From positions 4,890 to 68,889 of the forward strand of contig JAFVQN010000136.1 of assembly GCA_017504805.1 (NCBI GenBank): DNA of 64,000 nucleotides, given 5' to 3'. Every line of letters begins with the position of its first letter. The stretch's first letter is position 1. Made by a program: the position numbers and the translations under genes. Below, one piece after another: positions 10,395-41,775 of this stretch. Below the pieces are notes generated by a model. The model was given only the letters and a program-made list of their open reading frames with translations, ran no database searches and was not told the DNA's origin. The stretch comes from Akkermansia sp. (GTDB lineage Bacteria > Verrucomicrobiota > Verrucomicrobiia > Verrucomicrobiales > Akkermansiaceae).

Positions 10395-12305
10395 ATGAGT
10401 ACGTACGGCTATTACCGCCTGGCTGCTGTGACCCCGCGGGTGAAAGTGGCAGATGTTGCATTCAATACAGAAGAGATAATAAACGCCATGAAACAGGCTG
10501 TCCGGGGCGGTGCTCAGGCAGTGGTGTTTCCGGAGCTGTGCCTCACCGGGGTAAGCTGTGGTGATTTGTTCTTCCTGGCGCACTTGAGGCAGGCTGCGCT
10601 GCGTGGGCTTGCCCGTTTTGCCGCAGAGACCGCTCGTCTGGACGCGGTCGCAATCGTGGGGCTTCCGCTGCTAGTTGGGGAAGGTGTGTATAATGTCGCG
10701 GCCGTGGTGCGCCGCGGTCGTGTACTTGGCCTTGTGCCGAAATCGGTGCTGCCCAACTGTCGCGACGCGTACGAGAAGCGGCAGTTCCGGCCTGCTGGTG
10801 ACTTGCGCGTGAACGTTGTAGAGCTGCCTGGGGTTGGTTCACTACCTATCGGCACCGACCTCGTGTTCCGGGATGATGAGGATTTCAGTTTCTGCGTAGA
10901 GCTGGCGGACGATTTGTGGTCTGTTATTCCCCCGAGCAGCCGCCTGGCGTTGCAAGGAGCCCGGGTTATCTTTAATCCCGGGGCATGCACAGCCTGTGCA
11001 GGAGCCGCAGATTATTGCCGGAGCCTTGTGCAGCAGCAGAGCGCCCGGTGCCTTGCGGCGTACGTGTATACGTCTGCCGGTGTGGGGGAAAGTACGCAGG
11101 ACGTCGTGTACGGCGGTCAGGTGGTGATTGCTGATAACGGACGACTGGCCGCGGCCCCGCCACTGTTCTCCCGCGAGACGCAGATAACCTATGCTGATGT
11201 GGACATGCAGCGCCTCGCTGCAGCCCGCAGCAGTGAAAGCAGCTACAACGACTGCTGCGCTGCGCTTCCCTGCGCCCGCCAGATTTCAATCGGGCATTTT
11301 GAAAGCCGCTGCGACCTTGCCTATGCCTGGTTGCCGTCCCGCCCGTTTATCCCAGCCGCTTCCGAACGCGCCGCCCGGTGCGAGGAAATCCTCAATATTC
11401 AGGCGGCCGCCTTGGCGAAACGAGTCGAGCACACACATGCCCGCACGCTGGTGATTGGTATTTCCGGCGGTCTGGACAGCACGCTGGCGCTGATGGTGTG
11501 TGTCCGCGCCTGCAAGCTTCTGAACCTGCCGAGCAGTACTATTCTGGCGGTCACGATGCCGGGATTCGGAACCACCGGACGCACCTATCAGAATGCTGTG
11601 GCCATGATGCGTCTGCTGGGGGTCACCCTCAAGGAGGTGAATATCAAGGAAGCCTGCCTGCTTCATTTTCAGGACCTCGAGTTTGACCCCGCCTTGCGTA
11701 CCAGTACATACGAGAACGTGCAGGCACGCGAGCGCACCAGCATTCTCATGAATCTGGCCAATAAGACCGGGGGCATGGTGGTAGGCACAGGAGATCTCTC
11801 CGAAATCGCCCTGGGCTGGTCTACCTACAATGGAGACCACATGAGCATGTATGCGGTAAATTGCTCCGTACCCAAGACGCTCATCCGTTGTCTGCTTTCC
11901 TATGAGGCGGAGCACTGTTCGCGCGAACTGGCAGAAACGATACAGGACGTGATTGATACACCCGTGAGCCCCGAACTCCTGCCACCCGCGGATGATGGCA
12001 GCATGGAGCAGAAAACCGAGGATATACTCGGCCCGTATGACCTGCACGACTTCTTCCTTTACCACTTCATCAAATATGGAGCAGAACCGACCAAGCTGCG
12101 CGTGCTGGCTCAGGTGGCCTTTGCCGGTGAATATTCGGAGCAGCTGATTGGCCGCACGCTCGAAACCTTCCTCCGCCGCTTCTTCCAGCAGCAGTTCAAA
12201 CGCAGCTGTGTGCCGGATGGTCCGAAGGTGGGCTGCATCGCGCTTTCGCCGCGTGGTGACTGGCGCATGCCGACTGACGCCTGCGGGGAGTTGTGGAAAC
12301 CTTGA
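10395..12305 (+). CDS. nadE: NAD+ synthetase, two-domain (glutamine-dependent type)
   Basis: Nitrilase-like N-domain (FPELCLTG); synthetase IGISGGLDST, ENVQARERT, GTGDLSE, QQFKRSCVPDGPKVG. Confidence 0.95.
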   Translation: MSTYGYYRLAAVTPRVKVADVAFNTEEIINAMKQAVRGGAQAVVFPELCLTGVSCGDLFFLAHLRQAALRGLARFAAETARLDAVAIVGLPLLVGEGVYNVAAVVRRGRVLGLVPKSVLPNCRDAYEKRQFRPAGDLRVNVVELPGVGSLPIGTDLVFRDDEDFSFCVELADDLWSVIPPSSRLALQGARVIFNPGACTACAGAADYCRSLVQQQSARCLAAYVYTSAGVGESTQDVVYGGQVVIADNGRLAAAPPLFSRETQITYADVDMQRLAAARSSESSYNDCCAALPCARQISIGHFESRCDLAYAWLPSRPFIPAASERAARCEEILNIQAAALAKRVEHTHARTLVIGISGGLDSTLALMVCVRACKLLNLPSSTILAVTMPGFGTTGRTYQNAVAMMRLLGVTLKEVNIKEACLLHFQDLEFDPALRTSTYENVQARERTSILMNLANKTGGMVVGTGDLSEIALGWSTYNGDHMSMYAVNCSVPKTLIRCLLSYEAEHCSRELAETIQDVIDTPVSPELLPPADDGSMEQKTEDILGPYDLHDFFLYHFIKYGAEPTKLRVLAQVAFAGEYSEQLIGRTLETFLRRFFQQQFKRSCVPDGPKVGCIALSPRGDWRMPTDACGELWKP

Positions 12306-12336
12306 CATTGCGATAATCTTCTGCTAATCTACAACC

Positions 12337-12660
12337 ATGAAACGCGTTGAACAAGCTCTTGCCACATTCCGCCAGAAACCGTACATGTACAACTGCGCCC
12401 AGACGGTGTGTGCGGCGTTCGGTCGTGAGGATCTGATTGAACCCATGGCCTGCTGTGGTGGAGGCAGAGCCCCGGAGGGAACCTGTGGTGCCCTGTATGG
12501 CGCCATGCAGGTGGCTCCAGAGAAATCTGCTGCCATTCTGGCCGCGTTTTCCGCTGCGAACGGCTCGACTCTCTGCCGCGAGCTGAAGGGCGCCAATCGC
12601 GTGCCTTGCCAGGAATGCGTGCGCCTGGCTGCCACGCTTCTTGTGGAGCAGGGACTGTGA
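12337..12660 (+). CDS. C-GCAxxG-C-C family putative redox protein
   Basis: YNCAQTV, GTCGALYGA, GSTLCRELK, CQECV. Confidence 0.85.
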   Translation: MKRVEQALATFRQKPYMYNCAQTVCAAFGREDLIEPMACCGGGRAPEGTCGALYGAMQVAPEKSAAILAAFSAANGSTLCRELKGANRVPCQECVRLAATLLVEQGL

Positions 12661-12679: not shown

Positions 12680-12716
12680 GCTCAGGGGGGAACGCAGTAC
12701 CGCCCCTGAGCTTTTT
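12680..12716 (+). terminator. Intrinsic terminator
   Basis: GCTCAGGGG...CCCCTGAGC followed by TTTTT. Confidence 0.75.
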
Positions 12717-12756
12717 GTTGCAGTATGAATCACTCTGTGCTACACCACGGGGTGTT

Positions 12757-15246
12757 ATGCAAGAAATACCCATTGTATTAGGCTTTACAGCTGGTGAGTT
12801 GTCGCCCTGGCTTTCTACCCGCTTTGATTTGCAGGCGTATCAGCGCGGAGCTGCCCTCATTTCCAATTTCAGAATACAACCGTACGGTGGCCTGGAAGTG
12901 CGACGCGGCACGCAGTTTATGTGCAAGAGACCGGCAGGCCCCATACGTCTTTTCCCGTTCTGTTACGCGGAGAATGATGCCCTGCTTCTGGAGTTCTTTT
13001 CCGGTGGTATGCGGGTGTACAGGGAGGGGACCCCGGTGCAGACTGATACGGGAAGCGATTATACGCTCACAACACCATGGCTGACTGAGGAGCAGCTGGC
13101 TTCTTTGCATTTCACTCAGGTGAATGATGCCATCTACGTATGCAGCCCCAGTTATCCTCCGGTGGTGATTTACCGCTATGCGAATAATAAGTGGCGGTGT
13201 GAGCAGCCGGTGTTTGAAACTTACCCGCGAGAGACTCATGCCGCACAGAACGGACGCCTGACTGTGCTTTTTGAAAGGGGGGGGCTTTATGCCAACCTGA
13301 GCCTGGAGGGGAGTTCTCAGGAGTTTTCGGCGGATATGGCTGATTCAGAAATACTTCTGGCGGATGCTACTATTCCTGGCAGAACGCTCTTTGCCAATGA
13401 AATCCAGAAAACCGGTACGGTCGCAACGCCGGATTTGAGCACTTCATCCATTGCCCGGCACGCACTTCTGCACCAGCGTGATGATACCACCGGCATGTAT
13501 CATTTTTACCGATGTATCCGGGCGTACGCCCCGTCTGCCTTTAATGGAAGCACGAAACTGAGCGATTACCCTCACTATTTCCAGCCCGGTATCATGCGCC
13601 TGGATTCCAGCATGGTGCCGTATGAAGTAGTCAGTGACTGGGAGTTGACCACGTCCGGGACCTGGAACGGCCACTGGGAATTGTGGCGCAGTTACGATAC
13701 GCCGGATGATGAACCTGATTTCCACCTCTGGAACTGGACCTGTATTAAAAGTTTTTCGCAGTCTGATTATGAGAATCGTCAGAATTGGGCGATTTCCGGT
13801 TCTGAGTCACGGCCGTGTCGTCTCGTGCTGGTTTGCCGGTGCAGCACTGACCCTGAGGTGCTGGGGGCGATGGTTCAATTCAGGGTACTTGGAGGTCAGC
13901 GTGAGTACAAGTTTGTGATTAGTTCTGTGATCGATGCGCAGCATGCCCGCGCTCGCGTTCTGCGAACGTATCTGGGAACTCCCGTGAGCTTCTCTACGAA
14001 TCTATGGAGCTTTGGCGCTTTCGGCGTGCGAAACGGGTATCCGGCGTTTTCTGCTTTTTTTCAGGGCCGTCTCTGGCTGGGTGGCATGCCCGGTCTGCCC
14101 ACGACTCTGCTGGCCAGCGTCATTGATGATTTCCATAACTTCCGGACTGGTTCGGATGATGATGCCGCGTTGCATCTGAGTATAGTGGATAGTGACCAGA
14201 GCCGCATCTGTTGGTTATGTGCGACGCGGCAGCTGCTGGTGGGGACATCGGACAGTGAGTGGGTTCTTGTTTCAGCCAATGATTCTATCCTGACTCCCAC
14301 TTCTGTGGCTTTCCGCCGGCAGTCTTCCGTAGGCAGCGAAGGAATGTCCGCCCGGGCTGTGGAGAATACGGTGCTGTTTGTCCAGCGTGGTGGCAAACGC
14401 ATGCGCGAGATTGCGTACCGACTGGAATCGGATGGCTTTTCTGCTACAGATATCAGCATGCTGGCCGAGCATTTGTTTGCCTCCGGAGTCAAGGACTGGT
14501 GTGTGCAGCGCGGGTCCAATGTCAATGTCTGGGTGCTGATGAATGACGGTTCCGTGGCAGTGCTGACCATTAATATGGAGCAGCAGGTTACTGCATGGCA
14601 GAGAGTCGTGTTCGAAGGACGGGAGGTCCTGCAGATGGCCGCCTTGCAGAGTTCTGCCGGCCAGGATGATGAAATGTGGTTTGCTTTCCGCATCATTTCC
14701 AATAATAATGTCTCGCTGGAACGGATGCGTGATACATCACTCCATCTGGACAGCTATGAGGAAGTCGACGCTCTCAAGAACATGGAACTCAAATGCTCGT
14801 ATCACCTGGCCGGCACGATAATCATGATTCTTGATGCCGAAACTGGTGAAGGCGGTAGGAGTTACGCCACAGCTGGCGGATTGCGGGGCATTCCCTTCGT
14901 GATAAAAGGACGCCGCTACAAGGTGGGTATTCCCATTGAAGCAAACTTGCAGACGATGCCCCTGGAGGGGGCAAATAGCTTTAACTCCGTGAGGCAGTTC
15001 AGCCGATTCAAACTCCGCCTGTTGTCCAGTGACTTGAATTTTGAGTTCCGCAGCACGGCTTCCGACGCGTGGGAACACTTTCTGCCGGAGCATGCTCCCT
15101 GCGCCTCAGTCCCATACACTGGGGCTTTGAGACTGGCGCAGATGCCTGATGCCGATGTGGGCCAATCGCTCTGCCTGCGTTATTCAGCAGGTGGTGATTT
15201 CCGCCTGCTTGCCATCACGCAGGAGGTGGACCACCACGGTAAATGA
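12757..15246 (+). CDS. Phage tail tubular protein B / nozzle-like protein (podovirus type), solitary
   Basis: N-terminal FTAGELSPWL..RFDLQAYQRGA..ISNF..QPYGGL..RRGTQF; central WSFGAF...GYP...FFQGRLWLGG, DDFHNF..GSDDD, LLVGTSDSEW, VLFVQRGGKRMRE, EQQVTAW; C-terminal HLAG...VGIPIEANLQTMPLE; recognised from memory of the family, no search run. Confidence 0.8.
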   Translation: MQEIPIVLGFTAGELSPWLSTRFDLQAYQRGAALISNFRIQPYGGLEVRRGTQFMCKRPAGPIRLFPFCYAENDALLLEFFSGGMRVYREGTPVQTDTGSDYTLTTPWLTEEQLASLHFTQVNDAIYVCSPSYPPVVIYRYANNKWRCEQPVFETYPRETHAAQNGRLTVLFERGGLYANLSLEGSSQEFSADMADSEILLADATIPGRTLFANEIQKTGTVATPDLSTSSIARHALLHQRDDTTGMYHFYRCIRAYAPSAFNGSTKLSDYPHYFQPGIMRLDSSMVPYEVVSDWELTTSGTWNGHWELWRSYDTPDDEPDFHLWNWTCIKSFSQSDYENRQNWAISGSESRPCRLVLVCRCSTDPEVLGAMVQFRVLGGQREYKFVISSVIDAQHARARVLRTYLGTPVSFSTNLWSFGAFGVRNGYPAFSAFFQGRLWLGGMPGLPTTLLASVIDDFHNFRTGSDDDAALHLSIVDSDQSRICWLCATRQLLVGTSDSEWVLVSANDSILTPTSVAFRRQSSVGSEGMSARAVENTVLFVQRGGKRMREIAYRLESDGFSATDISMLAEHLFASGVKDWCVQRGSNVNVWVLMNDGSVAVLTINMEQQVTAWQRVVFEGREVLQMAALQSSAGQDDEMWFAFRIISNNNVSLERMRDTSLHLDSYEEVDALKNMELKCSYHLAGTIIMILDAETGEGGRSYATAGGLRGIPFVIKGRRYKVGIPIEANLQTMPLEGANSFNSVRQFSRFKLRLLSSDLNFEFRSTASDAWEHFLPEHAPCASVPYTGALRLAQMPDADVGQSLCLRYSAGGDFRLLAITQEVDHHGK

Positions 15247-15249
15247 CGC

Positions 15250-16617
15250 TTATTCGAGCGTAACAGGCCTGCCGGGTTCGGGAACCACGATTTCCGAATC
15301 CGGCATGAGCCTTTCCAACTCCTTGCGCATGGATTCCACTGCAGGCGGATCTCCATGCACCAGAAGCACTTTGCGCGGGTGGAGGCGGCACGCATAATCA
15401 ATGAGCGCCTGCCGTGTGGCGTGTCCGGAGAAATCGAAGCACTCCACGCGGCACTTGAGCGGATAGGCTTGTCCGCCTTTTTCCCGCAGATGCACCATTT
15501 CGCTGTGATGGGCGGCTTTGATTTTACCTGCCGGTGTTTCCGGGTCGCTGTAACCGACAAAGAGGATAGCATCGTCCGGGTGCGTGATAATCTGTTCTGC
15601 CAGGGTGTGTGATACGGTATGTTCACTCATCATGCCGCTGGAAACAAGGTAGATATTGCCAGGGGAGGCCACGAGCGGCGCGGTACCCTGGCGGGGGAGG
15701 CCGTGGGTTTCGACATGTTCCTTGATTCGGAACCCGGGCATGAGTCGCGGCGTACTGTCGGCCAGTTTGTCGTACACTGCGGTGATTTTGGAACTCAGAC
15801 CACCGAAGTAGATGGGGACATCAGGGATGAGGCCCTGCTCCTTGAAACGGCCGATTTCGGTAAGCAGGCATTGGCTTTTGCCCAGAGCGAAGACGGGGAT
15901 GAGGACTGCACCGTTGTTTTCCAGCACCTCGCGGATGGTGTCGGCAAAGCGCCGCAGTTCCTTTTCGCGGGTGTAGGCGGCATCGCGCTCTATGCATCCA
16001 TGCGTGCTTTCCATGATGAGCACATCAATGCCGCTTTCAGGGAAATCCGCTCCGGCGATGAGGGTCTGGTTATCAAATTGTACGTCCCCGGTATAGAGGA
16101 TGGTTGTGCCGCTTTCACTTTCCAGCTCCACTCCGCAGCTGCCCAGAATATGGCCGGCATCGTGCAGTGTGGCGAGCACCCGCCCGCTGCGTCCGATGCG
16201 GAAAGACTCGTTGTATGCCCGGGGCATCCAGCAGCGGGCTGCATGGTCCAGCTCTGCATGTGTGTAGAAGGGGTATTCGATGATGCCATCCTGCGTGCGC
16301 TTGGCAGTCATCACGTTGACGGAGTTGTGCAGCATGGCCAGGCCGACCTCGCAGGTGGCTGCAGTCATGATGACTTCTGCCGATGGGTACTTATCCTGCA
16401 GCAAGGGAAGGGTGCCTATGTGGTCAAGGTGCGAGTGCGTTACGAAGATGGTATCTGGATCGGCCGCGCCAATGAGGTTGAATTCGGGCGTCGCCTCAGC
16501 TCCGTCCTTTTTCGGGTGCATGCCTGAATCCAGGATGATGCGCACACCATACATATCGAGCAGATAGCAATTCGAGCCGATATCGGTGTGGCGGGAAAGA
16601 TTGGTGAAACTAATCAT
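15250..16617 (-). CDS. MBL-fold beta-CASP ribonuclease
   Basis: THSHLDHIG, AGHILGS, YTGD, FSGHA, VHGD motifs. Confidence 0.9.
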   Translation of the reverse strand: MISFTNLSRHTDIGSNCYLLDMYGVRIILDSGMHPKKDGAEATPEFNLIGAADPDTIFVTHSHLDHIGTLPLLQDKYPSAEVIMTAATCEVGLAMLHNSVNVMTAKRTQDGIIEYPFYTHAELDHAARCWMPRAYNESFRIGRSGRVLATLHDAGHILGSCGVELESESGTTILYTGDVQFDNQTLIAGADFPESGIDVLIMESTHGCIERDAAYTREKELRRFADTIREVLENNGAVLIPVFALGKSQCLLTEIGRFKEQGLIPDVPIYFGGLSSKITAVYDKLADSTPRLMPGFRIKEHVETHGLPRQGTAPLVASPGNIYLVSSGMMSEHTVSHTLAEQIITHPDDAILFVGYSDPETPAGKIKAAHHSEMVHLREKGGQAYPLKCRVECFDFSGHATRQALIDYACRLHPRKVLLVHGDPPAVESMRKELERLMPDSEIVVPEPGRPVTLE

Positions 16618-22631: not shown

Positions 22632-23246
22632 TCAGCGGATGAAGTGAGTCCAGGCGCGGGGGGAGGGCGCCTGCGGGTGCTTAGGCCCAGCTGCCAGACA
22701 CTGCATCACCCAGGCCATGTTCTGCCCGAGGTGGCAGAGTGTCTGTACGCCTTCTGCATCCTGCTGCACTTCTCCTGGGCGCATGCCGTAAATCATATTC
22801 CAGTAAAAGGAACTGACCAGGGGTTGGTTATTATAGGTGATGTACTTGTTGAGCCGGTCCAGGGTGGTGCTGGCACCACCGCGGCGTGCCACTGCAACCG
22901 TGGCTCCGGGTTTATATGCCAGCTTTGCACCGGCAGAATAGTACAGCCGGTCCAGCAGGGCGCAGAGCGAGCCGTTGGGGCCGGCAAAGTAGGTGGGGCT
23001 TCCAATCACAATGCCATCTATGGAATCCAGCTGGTCATAGATGTAGCTGTAAAGCTTATCCTTCATGCCGCAGCGTCCGGTTTTAAGGCATTGCCGACAG
23101 CCGATGCACCCTTGCACCGCTGCTGCTCCAATCTGGACAATCTCGGTTTCGACGCCGGCGGCGTTCATAGCTTCAGCCACGATGGAGAGCGCGTGGTAAG
23201 TATTGCCTGCCGCATTGGGGCTGCCGTTGAGGAGTAGAGCTTTCAT
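22632..23246 (-). CDS. Flavodoxin family / iron-sulfur flavoprotein
   Basis: NGSPNAAGNT, GCIGCRQC..TGRC, GSPTYFAG, RRGG. Confidence 0.9.
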   Translation of the reverse strand: MKALLLNGSPNAAGNTYHALSIVAEAMNAAGVETEIVQIGAAAVQGCIGCRQCLKTGRCGMKDKLYSYIYDQLDSIDGIVIGSPTYFAGPNGSLCALLDRLYYSAGAKLAYKPGATVAVARRGGASTTLDRLNKYITYNNQPLVSSFYWNMIYGMRPGEVQQDAEGVQTLCHLGQNMAWVMQCLAAGPKHPQAPSPRAWTHFIR

Positions 23247-23345
23247 GCTGCAGAGTGTAGCACGCAGGCAAACAGGCTGCAAGTAAATAATATGCTGCCA
23301 CAGACGAAGCCGGGCATTGACCGCTGCGGGGAGCTTGTGATATGA

Positions 23346-40644: not shown

Positions 40645-41775
40645 TCACCTGGTAGCTGCATAGCGGCCGCCGGGCAGGGGGGTGATGCGGCGGGCAATCT
40701 GCAGGCGCATGAGCAGCGGGTTGAGTTCACCTGCCCCGTGGCCTAGTGCAGAGCACAGGGCATCCAGTGTGTCATGACCTGCCTGGATGGCTTTTATCAG
40801 AGCTTCGGCATCATCTCCGGAGGTCTGAGGTTGAGGCGTATCACGGCGGACTGGTGCATCCGGGGACGTGAAGAGCTCGAGCTGCTGATGCCCGCTCCAG
40901 TTCATGTCCTGCAGCAGTTCGCGCGGGGATGTACAGAGCGTTGCTCCGTCGCGTATCAAGGCATGGCAGCCGCGTGAGCTGCCAGCAGTGATGTGCCCGG
41001 GAATGGCAAAGACGCTGTTGCCATAGTCCGTGGCTGCCATGTTGGCGGTATGCAGGGATCCGCTGTGCTGCGGTGCTTCCACTACCAGCGTGGCCCGGCT
41101 CCAGGCGGCTACGATGCGGTTCCGCTGCGGGAATGTGGTGCGGCTCGGGCGCATGTACATGGGGAACTCGCTCACCAGCGCCCCGTGGCCAGCGCAGATG
41201 CGGTCTGCCAGTTCAACGTTCTCGTCCGGGTAGAGACTGGCCATGCCGAAACCGAGCACGGCCAGGGTGCGACCTCCGGCATCCAGTGCGCCCCAGTGTG
41301 CGGCGGTATCAATACCCCGGGCGAGGCCGGAAATGATGGTGCAGCCTGCATCTGCCAGCTCACAGCCGAAGCGACGGGCTGTGGTCATGCCATAGGGTGT
41401 TGCCTGTCTGGTGCCGACGATGGCGACACTGCGGTCACTGTCGCTGGCCATCCAGTTGCCTCGTACGTAAAGCACGATAGGCGGGTCATGCATCCGCCTC
41501 AGGAATTCAGGGTATTCGGAATCAAGCAGCGTCACAATGCGGACGTTGTACTGCGCTGCACAGTCCAGTTCCGCCCTGGCATTGGTGCAGTTTTTCCAGT
41601 CGGCTATGGACTCAGCCAGTTTCGGACCAATGCGGGGCACATTGGCCAGCATACTCGCCTGAGCGTGGAGCACATGCTCGGCACTGCCGAAAAAATCCAG
41701 CAGTGCCTGAATCCTCATTGACCCGAGACCGGGGATGAGGTTGAGCGTGATAAGAGCCTCCTGGGGAGAGAGCAT
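40645..41775 (-). CDS. dprA: DNA processing protein DprA
   Basis: PPIVLYVRG, VAIVGTR, ISGLARGIDTAAH, FPQRNRI, SGSLHTA. Confidence 0.95.
   Translation of the reverse strand: MLSPQEALITLNLIPGLGSMRIQALLDFFGSAEHVLHAQASMLANVPRIGPKLAESIADWKNCTNARAELDCAAQYNVRIVTLLDSEYPEFLRRMHDPPIVLYVRGNWMASDSDRSVAIVGTRQATPYGMTTARRFGCELADAGCTIISGLARGIDTAAHWGALDAGGRTLAVLGFGMASLYPDENVELADRICAGHGALVSEFPMYMRPSRTTFPQRNRIVAAWSRATLVVEAPQHSGSLHTANMAATDYGNSVFAIPGHITAGSSRGCHALIRDGATLCTSPRELLQDMNWSGHQQLELFTSPDAPVRRDTPQPQTSGDDAEALIKAIQAGHDTLDALCSALGHGAGELNPLLMRLQIARRITPLPGGRYAATR

Follow-up and report, generated by a model that had tools for sequence, protein, structure and literature searches.

The stretch analysed here, called the window throughout, comprises 64,000 nucleotides (nt) on contig C129 (JAFVQN010000136.1) of an Akkermansia metagenome-assembled genome (MAG; GCA_017504805.1), which is 80% complete, amounts to 2.04 Mb in 162 contigs, and is referred to below as the home genome (G000). 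It carries an intact gene encoding a protein of 829 amino acids (aa) that resembles, over its whole length, the tail nozzle (tail tubular protein B) of podoviruses, and that stands alone among host genes, between nadE (NAD synthase) and a small C_GCAxxG protein gene on one side and a convergent gene for a beta-CASP ribonuclease (RNase) of metallo-beta-lactamase fold on the other. This nozzle gene, and the phage-derived genes found elsewhere in the same genome, are the subject of the analysis. The open frame spans positions 12715 to 15246 of the forward strand without interruption, and translation likely starts at the ATG at 12757, since the orthologues all align from MQE. A first-pass annotation made from the sequence had described an intact podovirus nozzle gene of ~830 aa at 12718 to 15246; its nature, integrity, and end coordinate are borne out, whereas 12718 proved to be the first base of an upstream TTGCAG hexamer and not a start codon.

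The assignment relies on profile, sequence, and structure comparisons. The protein matches the PHROG 376 family ("tail protein") with an E value of 3.6e-116, residues 6 to 828 aligning with profile positions 7 to 711 of 712, and the solved tail nozzle of Carin-1 (PDB 8ck1_A) was matched by sequence with an E value of 3.8e-42; the Pfam scan of the protein matched no family. An AlphaFold2 (AF2) model derived from 20 orthologues has a mean predicted local distance difference test (pLDDT) score of 78.9, and its Foldseek comparison with the PDB, which the first-pass annotation had proposed, returned podovirus nozzles only at ranks 1 to 17, including those of Carin-1, LME-1, cyanophages, T7 gp12, Kp7/Kp9, and PhiM1. 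The TM-scores of the model are 0.59 to Carin-1 and 0.43 to 0.45 to T7 gp12. The nearest phage genes are those annotated as "tail tubular protein B" in epsilon15-like and Pelagibacter podophages (~29% identity), and the least conserved stretch of the protein comprises residues 630 to 720. The gene therefore encodes a full-length podovirus nozzle with, as modelled, the nozzle fold, which comprises an N-terminal platform, a beta-propeller, and beta domains at the C terminus. In podovirus virions, the nozzle is a hexameric channel located below the dodecameric adaptor. The Akkermansia protein is like the podovirus nozzles (Carin-1 8ck1 chain A, T7 gp12, LME-1 orf18, and PHROG 376) in full-length sequence, fold, and size (~800 to 830 aa); however, the phage genes sit in a virion module, whereas the Akkermansia gene is alone amid housekeeping genes, is vertically inherited across a bacterial genus, and has a promoter-like element of host type (Table 1).

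Table 1. Features of the nozzle locus and further features of the window (window coordinates)
Feature	Position	Strand	Basis
Nozzle (tail tubular protein B) gene, 829 aa, intact	12757..15246	+	PHROG 376, PDB 8ck1_A, Foldseek, orthologue starts
Promoter-like element of the extended -10 type: TTGCAG, a 17-nt spacer with TGC at its end, TACACC	12718..12746	+	Sequence; putative function
13-mer GGAACGCAGTACC, 16 nt upstream of the -35	12689..12701	+	Three exact genome copies
Terminator-like hairpin (CTCAGGGG...CCCCTGAG, then TTTTT) belonging to the C_GCAxxG gene; its loop contains the 13-mer	12681..12716	+	Sequence
Inverted repeat (CACTCTGTG / CACGGGGTG, with G-U pairs) around the -10-like hexamer, ending 2 nt before the ATG	12731..12754	+	
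Host flank: nadE (NAD synthase) and small C_GCAxxG protein	10395..12660	+	Pfam; syntenic in nearest species
nadE	10395-12305	+	Pfam
C_GCAxxG gene	12337-12660	+	Pfam
Host flank: convergent beta-CASP metallo-beta-lactamase-fold RNase gene	15250..16617	-	Pfam
TTGCAG-17-TACACT before a host FMN-reductase/flavodoxin-like gene	23245-23282	-	
dprA	40645-41775	-	

An orthologue of the nozzle is present in 129 of the 154 Akkermansia species genomes (92 of the 107 high-quality ones), and the gene is thus not strain-specific, a possibility that the first-pass annotation had named as speaking against its interpretation. Among 24 sampled congeners, 22 carry an orthologue with an open frame, at 33 to 72% identity, and the nozzle is solitary at every Akkermansia locus examined. 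In the rest of the family, an orthologue was found in one sister genus only, other genera giving weaker, prophage-like matches. In A. muciniphila the orthologue, 822 aa long, is annotated as a "hypothetical protein" and falls into a cluster of 669 sequences. The five nearest species conserve the order nadE, C_GCAxxG, nozzle, beta-CASP, and in nearer species the beta-CASP gene is 81 to 91% identical and next to the nozzle gene; in more distant species the nozzle gene is located between other genes, which have counterparts of 50 to 95% identity elsewhere in the home genome. Against two metagenomic orthologues of 93% aa identity, the ratio of nonsynonymous to synonymous substitution rates (dN/dS) of the nozzle gene is 0.044 and 0.048 at a dS of 0.73, with 0.036 for the flanking beta-CASP gene and 0.062 for the C_GCAxxG gene; at larger distances dS is saturated and the nozzle dN/dS is at most 0.17. 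These values are those of a gene under strong purifying selection, like its neighbours, which agrees with the earlier view that the gene is retained under selection and excludes a decaying relic. Classification as a prophage gene was likewise ruled out, on account of the solitary place, the open frames in 129 of 154 genomes, and a dN/dS of ~0.045. Four nozzle matches in one clade were flagged as containing one TAG; these matches extend 2 to 3 positions beyond those of sister sequences with the same 834-aa open frame, and the TAG is presumably the natural stop codon rather than a lesion.

When the proteins of true podophage-type prophages from congeners and from another Verrucomicrobiales genus were used as queries against the whole home genome, further phage-derived genes were recovered at other host-flanked sites, in keeping with the idea that solitary partner genes might lie elsewhere on the chromosome. 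Contig C137 encodes a T7-type portal (PF12236, E = 3.3e-123) and, divergent from it, an adaptor of the tail tubular A type (PHROG 394, E = 3.7e-41), together with a scaffold-like gene at the portal locus. The major capsid protein, which is of the HK97 type, is encoded by a solitary gene on C133 (PF19821, E = 1.2e-73; PHROG 3437, E = 1e-51), and the large terminase (TerL) is encoded on C125 (PHROG 2). A PDB sequence search with TerL gave no match. The protein retains every motif invariant among the prophage TerL proteins (K57, R59, G62, S64, T65, S175, E176, D350, D407, and D506), including the Walker-A-like KxRxLGxST, the SE of Walker B, and three nuclease aspartates. The portal/adaptor, capsid, and TerL loci are flanked by host genes encoding RNase HII, an autotransporter, a Sel1-repeat protein, and an NTP-transferase. 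Among the 24 congeners, TerL was found in 23 (64 to 90% identity), the portal in 23 (63 to 85%), the adaptor in 23 (50 to 79%), and the capsid protein in 22, in 21 of them as an orthologue (62 to 95%), and the frames are open in nearly all congeners that carry these genes. As a control, a 751-aa protein from a true prophage piece of the home genome (contig C78) occurs in 4 of the 24 congeners, compared with 22 to 23 for the genes of the set. In the complete genome G007 the loci are far apart: the capsid gene (0.35 Mb), TerL (1.83 Mb), and the portal and adaptor genes (3.07 Mb) are separated from one another by more than 1 Mb, and the nozzle gene is found at 2.86 Mb.

Presence and absence of these genes go together. 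Two genomes (G013 and G151) are without nozzle, TerL, portal, and capsid genes altogether, and two others (G059 and G145) contain only clustered, distant prophage paralogues of all four. Congruence, which the first-pass annotation had suggested checking with trees, was assessed by identity ranks and distances: identities to the home genome correlate between the nozzle and the other three genes with Spearman coefficients of 0.85 to 0.93 (0.74 with nadE), and the pairwise distance matrices of nozzle and adaptor correlate with a Mantel r of 0.905, which none of 5,000 permutations reached. These figures overstate the significance, because related genomes are not independent, although the pattern is consistent. 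Judged from these comparisons, the nozzle gene shares its evolutionary history with the portal, TerL, capsid, and adaptor genes.

As to the origin of the set, a locus of the sister genus (G057:C69:860-7204, L151) has the portal gene (-) near adjacent adaptor (+) and nozzle (+) genes, with host genes a few kilobases away, and this arrangement looks like the ancestral state, before the nozzle gene became separated in Akkermansia. In prophages of another Verrucomicrobiales genus (G038), TerL, capsid, adaptor, and nozzle genes are contiguous, with portal and scaffold-like genes nearby. Given the adjacency in the sister genus and the contiguity in G038, the solitary position of the nozzle gene is a derived one, reached when a single ancestral module was rearranged. 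Temperate podophages of Akkermansia and other Verrucomicrobiales (G001, G004, G011, G016, and G038) contain the same gene families as the host-owned set, and phages of this kind are, from their gene content, its likely ancestors; their prophage copies are clustered, variable between genomes, and 26 to 50% identical to the host-owned genes. No nozzle paralogue was detected in the 80%-complete home assembly.

The start of the nozzle gene is organized like that of a host gene. The TTGCAG-17-TACACC element reported in the first-pass annotation is present, its TACACC ending 10 nt before the ATG and preceded, at one base distance, by TG, so that the messenger RNA would have a very short leader or none. 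In an alignment of 36 orthologues whose genomic contexts differ, TTG and TGnTAnA are retained; T42 is invariant there, and T22, G43, T45, A46, and A48 are conserved at 90% or more. The window has two occurrences of TTGCAG-N17-TACAC, where 0.02 would be expected. The second of them, with TACACT ending 7 nt before the ATG of a host gene encoding a flavin mononucleotide (FMN)-reductase/flavodoxin-like protein, suggests that this host normally makes near-leaderless transcripts from extended -10 promoters. With the same architecture at the two genes and its conservation among orthologues, the description of the nozzle gene as wired in like a host gene is a fair one.

Upstream of this putative promoter, the dispersed loci have an element in common. 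The 13-mer GGAACGCAGTACC has three exact copies in the 2.04-Mb home genome, where 0.06 are expected: one is upstream of the nozzle gene, one precedes the TerL operon, 14 nt upstream of a TTGACC, and one precedes an integrase gene. Near-copies arranged as 13-4-13 palindromes precede the TerL operon as well as the adaptor and capsid genes, and a relaxed consensus has 10 matches genome-wide, of which 5 are at the four phage-derived loci; all four loci of the home genome thus have the element or a related copy. At the nozzle gene, where the 13-mer is in the loop of a terminator-like hairpin (Table 1), the hairpin stem varies within the near clade while the loop is conserved, and the exact 13-mer is confined to that clade (8 of 82 nozzle loci within two mismatches). 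In other species the sequence of the element differs, yet it matches between the nozzle locus and the adaptor or TerL locus of one and the same genome, examples being a 22-mer (G022), a 24-mer that has a single mismatch (G002), and GGGCAATAAGTG (G016). The longest exact shared word was discarded as too strict a measure and replaced by an ungapped local score, the mean of which is 10.7 within genomes versus 7.3 across genomes, a difference that none of 5,000 label permutations reached; nine of 17 genomes have a z score above 2. A search of prophage regions did not find the element in those tested. In its simplest reading, this pattern of sequence matches suggests a common operator for a co-evolving regulator, an alternative being that the shared element acts at the RNA level.

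The inverted repeat around the -10-like hexamer has arms that vary between species yet remain complementary. The 43 nt up to and including the ATG have a mean minimum free energy (MFE) of -12.7 kcal/mol (z = -1.7) in 79 orthologues, compared with -6.3 kcal/mol (z = 0) at 160 control gene starts, and the sense strand folds more stably than the antisense strand (p = 1e-10), as is expected from G-U pairs in RNA. RNAalifold did not recover a consensus structure from the 36 aligned upstream regions because the arms are out of register, and per-sequence folding with controls was used instead. If transcription starts after the -10 hexamer, the 5' arm is outside the transcript, and the hairpin could then mask the start codon on read-through transcripts only; that it does so is speculation.

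Taken together, we consider it probable, from gene content and inheritance, that the nozzle is part of a domesticated podovirus-like particle whose host-owned genes are scattered over the Akkermansia chromosome. The set occupies at least four loci, namely, the solitary nozzle gene, the adaptor gene divergent from the portal and scaffold-like genes, the solitary capsid gene, and the operon in which two large genes accompany TerL. We hold with high confidence that the nozzle is a member of a single functional gene set whose parts are inherited together. That the products of the set would assemble into a particle is the expectation that we favour with less assurance; and that such a particle would package host DNA and transfer it is a tentative proposal. 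In the proposed mechanism, a common regulator would bind the shared upstream element and switch the loci on together, the loci being co-regulated on this view; capsid and portal would build the head, which the terminase would fill with DNA, and adaptor and nozzle would seal the portal and, at a later stage, provide the exit channel. With its loci far apart, the particle could not carry its own gene set, which would make it similar to a gene transfer agent (GTA; a viriform) rather than to a phage. Two features sought in GTAs were found: the head, portal, terminase, and tail genes are vertically inherited under purifying selection, and the set is too dispersed to be packaged as a unit and has no integrase or replication module with it, as judged from the positions in G007 and the host-gene flanks. 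In its fullest form, which we advance with some reserve, Akkermansia, including A. muciniphila, might run a podovirus-type GTA from at least four loci, under one regulator with a palindromic operator and with the nozzle as the DNA exit channel; the operator proposed for the home genome is GGTACnGCGTTAC-N4-GnAACGCnGTACC, which would co-evolve with its binding protein across species. A scattered, GTA-like particle had been one of two alternatives offered in the first-pass annotation, and the partners located elsewhere, conserved in the same genomes and jointly absent from others, with shared history and a shared upstream element, speak in its favour.

The other alternative was that the nozzle had been co-opted alone, as a beta-propeller protein with a function unrelated to the other phage-derived genes. 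Its solitary place with a host-type promoter-like element of its own, the shifts of its genomic context between lineages, and its lack of recognition by Pfam would fit such a history; but the presence and absence of the nozzle gene follow those of portal, TerL, and capsid, its history is common with that of the adaptor, next to which it is encoded in the sister genus, the match to virion nozzles is complete from the N to the C terminus, and the upstream element is common to the nozzle and the other loci, all of which makes a lone co-option improbable. Far less probable still is a simple relic of a decayed prophage that has not yet eroded. Phage origin without adjoining phage genes is what such a relic would look like, but open frames in 129 of 154 species, a dN/dS equal to that of housekeeping neighbours over distances from a dS of 0.7 to saturation, and conserved host-gene synteny and promoter-like element are not, and the real prophage gene of the home genome is restricted to 4 of 24 congeners.

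Two further explanations accept that the set is functional. The host-owned virion parts could serve in conflict with phages, interfering with related temperate podophages or being mobilised by them (assembly poisoning or a satellite). In many Akkermansia genomes there are also true, clustered prophages, whose nozzle, TerL, portal, capsid, and adaptor genes are paralogues (~26 to 50% identity) of the host-owned ones, so that proteins of both kinds could encounter each other within a cell, and the nozzle, with its poorly conserved stretch, is the fastest-evolving part of the set. A decoy, however, does not need an intact terminase with all its motifs plus portal, capsid, adaptor, and nozzle; the shared upstream element was not detected in those prophage regions that were tested; and the set is also present where no prophage paralogue was found, as in G007, with one match per query. 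We therefore regard this explanation as unlikely. A particle may also be built without being a GTA, as a killing particle, a cargo shell, or a DNA-release device, which would be compatible with the conservation of the structural genes, with DNA transfer being a tentative proposal, and with a conserved set in which a small terminase was not identified. This explanation, too, has little probability in our view, as the ATPase and nuclease motifs of TerL and the T7-type portal point to DNA packaging, and nozzle and adaptor point to DNA exit.

Several results weigh against a dispersed, DNA-packaging particle of the kind that we favour. About 16% of the Akkermansia species genomes, roughly one species in six, are without the nozzle gene and the set, which makes the nozzle dispensable, and the nozzle diverges faster than other parts (33 to 72% versus 62 to 95% identity). 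The home MAG being incomplete and fragmented, dispersal in this genome rests on separate, host-flanked contigs. Neither a small terminase, nor a tail fibre or receptor-binding protein, nor a lysis gene was identified in the conserved set. The shared element also occurs at five or six sites of the home genome that are not phage-derived, 7 to 8 of the 17 genomes are individually non-significant for it, and the nozzle and adaptor upstream regions of G007 have no significant shared element.

Among known systems, RcGTA of Rhodobacter capsulatus and its relatives is likewise made from phage-derived structural and packaging genes that are kept by the host under purifying selection, at several loci too distant to be co-packaged; such multi-locus GTAs and the viriform concept are treated in PMC9953437 and PMC11841831. 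RcGTA has a siphovirus-like tail, whereas the set of Akkermansia (Verrucomicrobiota) is of the podovirus type, with a T7-type portal (PF12236), adaptor, and nozzle; even its head and tail genes are split up individually, and it is known here from its genes alone. The activator of RcGTA is GafA, and the shared upstream element hints at one activator in Akkermansia likewise. Another comparable system is FpGTA of the gut commensal Faecalibacterium prausnitzii (Borodovich et al., Nat Commun 2026, PMC12946183), a GTA-like element with probably podovirus-like morphology and more than one locus, which is billed as the human gut microbiome's first GTA-like element and as the first that has podovirus-like morphology. 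According to the same report, FpGTA consists of two operons, occurs in some strains only, and has experimental support (packaged-DNA sequencing, with electron microscopy and proteomics among the methods); Akkermansia is not mentioned there. The Akkermansia set, also of a gut commensal, podovirus-like, and multi-locus, differs from it in having at least four loci and a nearly genus-wide distribution, established from sequence. In the literature library searched, we found no paper that connects Akkermansia with a GTA, with phage-like particles, or with a terminase, portal, or nozzle that has been domesticated.

If the proposal holds, Akkermansia, to which the probiotic species A. muciniphila belongs, would have in this host-owned virus-like particle that packages DNA an unrecognised means by which genes are exchanged, or by which DNA is released and cells lyse, with a bearing on strain evolution, safety assessment, and virome data, in which capsid-borne bacterial DNA is commonly taken as contamination or transduction. 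It would extend GTAs to Verrucomicrobiota and to a T7-like podovirus architecture, with a scattering of genes that exceeds that of the described systems compared. The shared upstream element offers a direct experimental handle on the binding protein and the inducing condition.

Further copies of the form G[GT]AACGCAGTACC were noted in the home genome at C66:18047 (L156:6047), C9:12131, C44:304, C48:13552, and C67:1088; one extra copy is just upstream of a gene for a tyrosine recombinase of the phage integrase family, and three are in a ~100-nt repeat near contig ends, within the loop of a CCCCTG/CAGGGG hairpin. On C125, genes of 415 and 1,721 aa without family match precede TerL in an operon-like unit (C125:10146-16540; L117:1146-7540). 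A 170-aa gene downstream of the adaptor gene (C137:4003-4515, -; L120) is 47% identical to a gene of a true prophage (G001), has a counterpart in the sister genus, and may be a further member of the conserved set. The complete genome G105 has two host-type capsid copies (C1:560390-561289 and 1153768-1154664), 61 to 62% identical to the query, one of them near a short nozzle-like fragment at 559026-559181. The gene cluster on C78 (C78:2173-19432, L118), in which a small terminase (PHROG 51) is followed by proteins of 851, 271, 114, and 751 aa and a giant of 3,494 aa, was rejected as part of the conserved set, its 751-aa protein having the sparse distribution given above, and is considered a real prophage piece.

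Within the window, Pfam and sequence agree with the placement of the nozzle gene given in the first-pass annotation, the stop codon of the convergent beta-CASP gene being 3 nt away from its own. The upstream host genes are lpxD, ompH, an old yellow enzyme (OYE)-type reductase gene, merR, nadE, and the C_GCAxxG gene; downstream, the beta-CASP RNase gene is followed by glycosyltransferase genes, and base composition is continuous across the nozzle gene, without a break. The proteins of five related prophages, searched against C129, matched at the nozzle gene only and at no other virion gene, as the earlier observation of a solitary gene would have it. The dprA gene of the window had been deemed compatible with DNA uptake; comEC is present as well, but both families occur over the cut-off in 10 of 14 control genomes, and being so widespread, nearly universal in the case of dprA, they are uninformative and carry no weight here. 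In two close relatives, nadE is just 66 to 67% identical, with flanking genes at 85 to 92% (loci L013 and L010; G011 and G022 compared), and in G011 nadE is not at the nozzle locus, which hints that nadE has been replaced or relocated.

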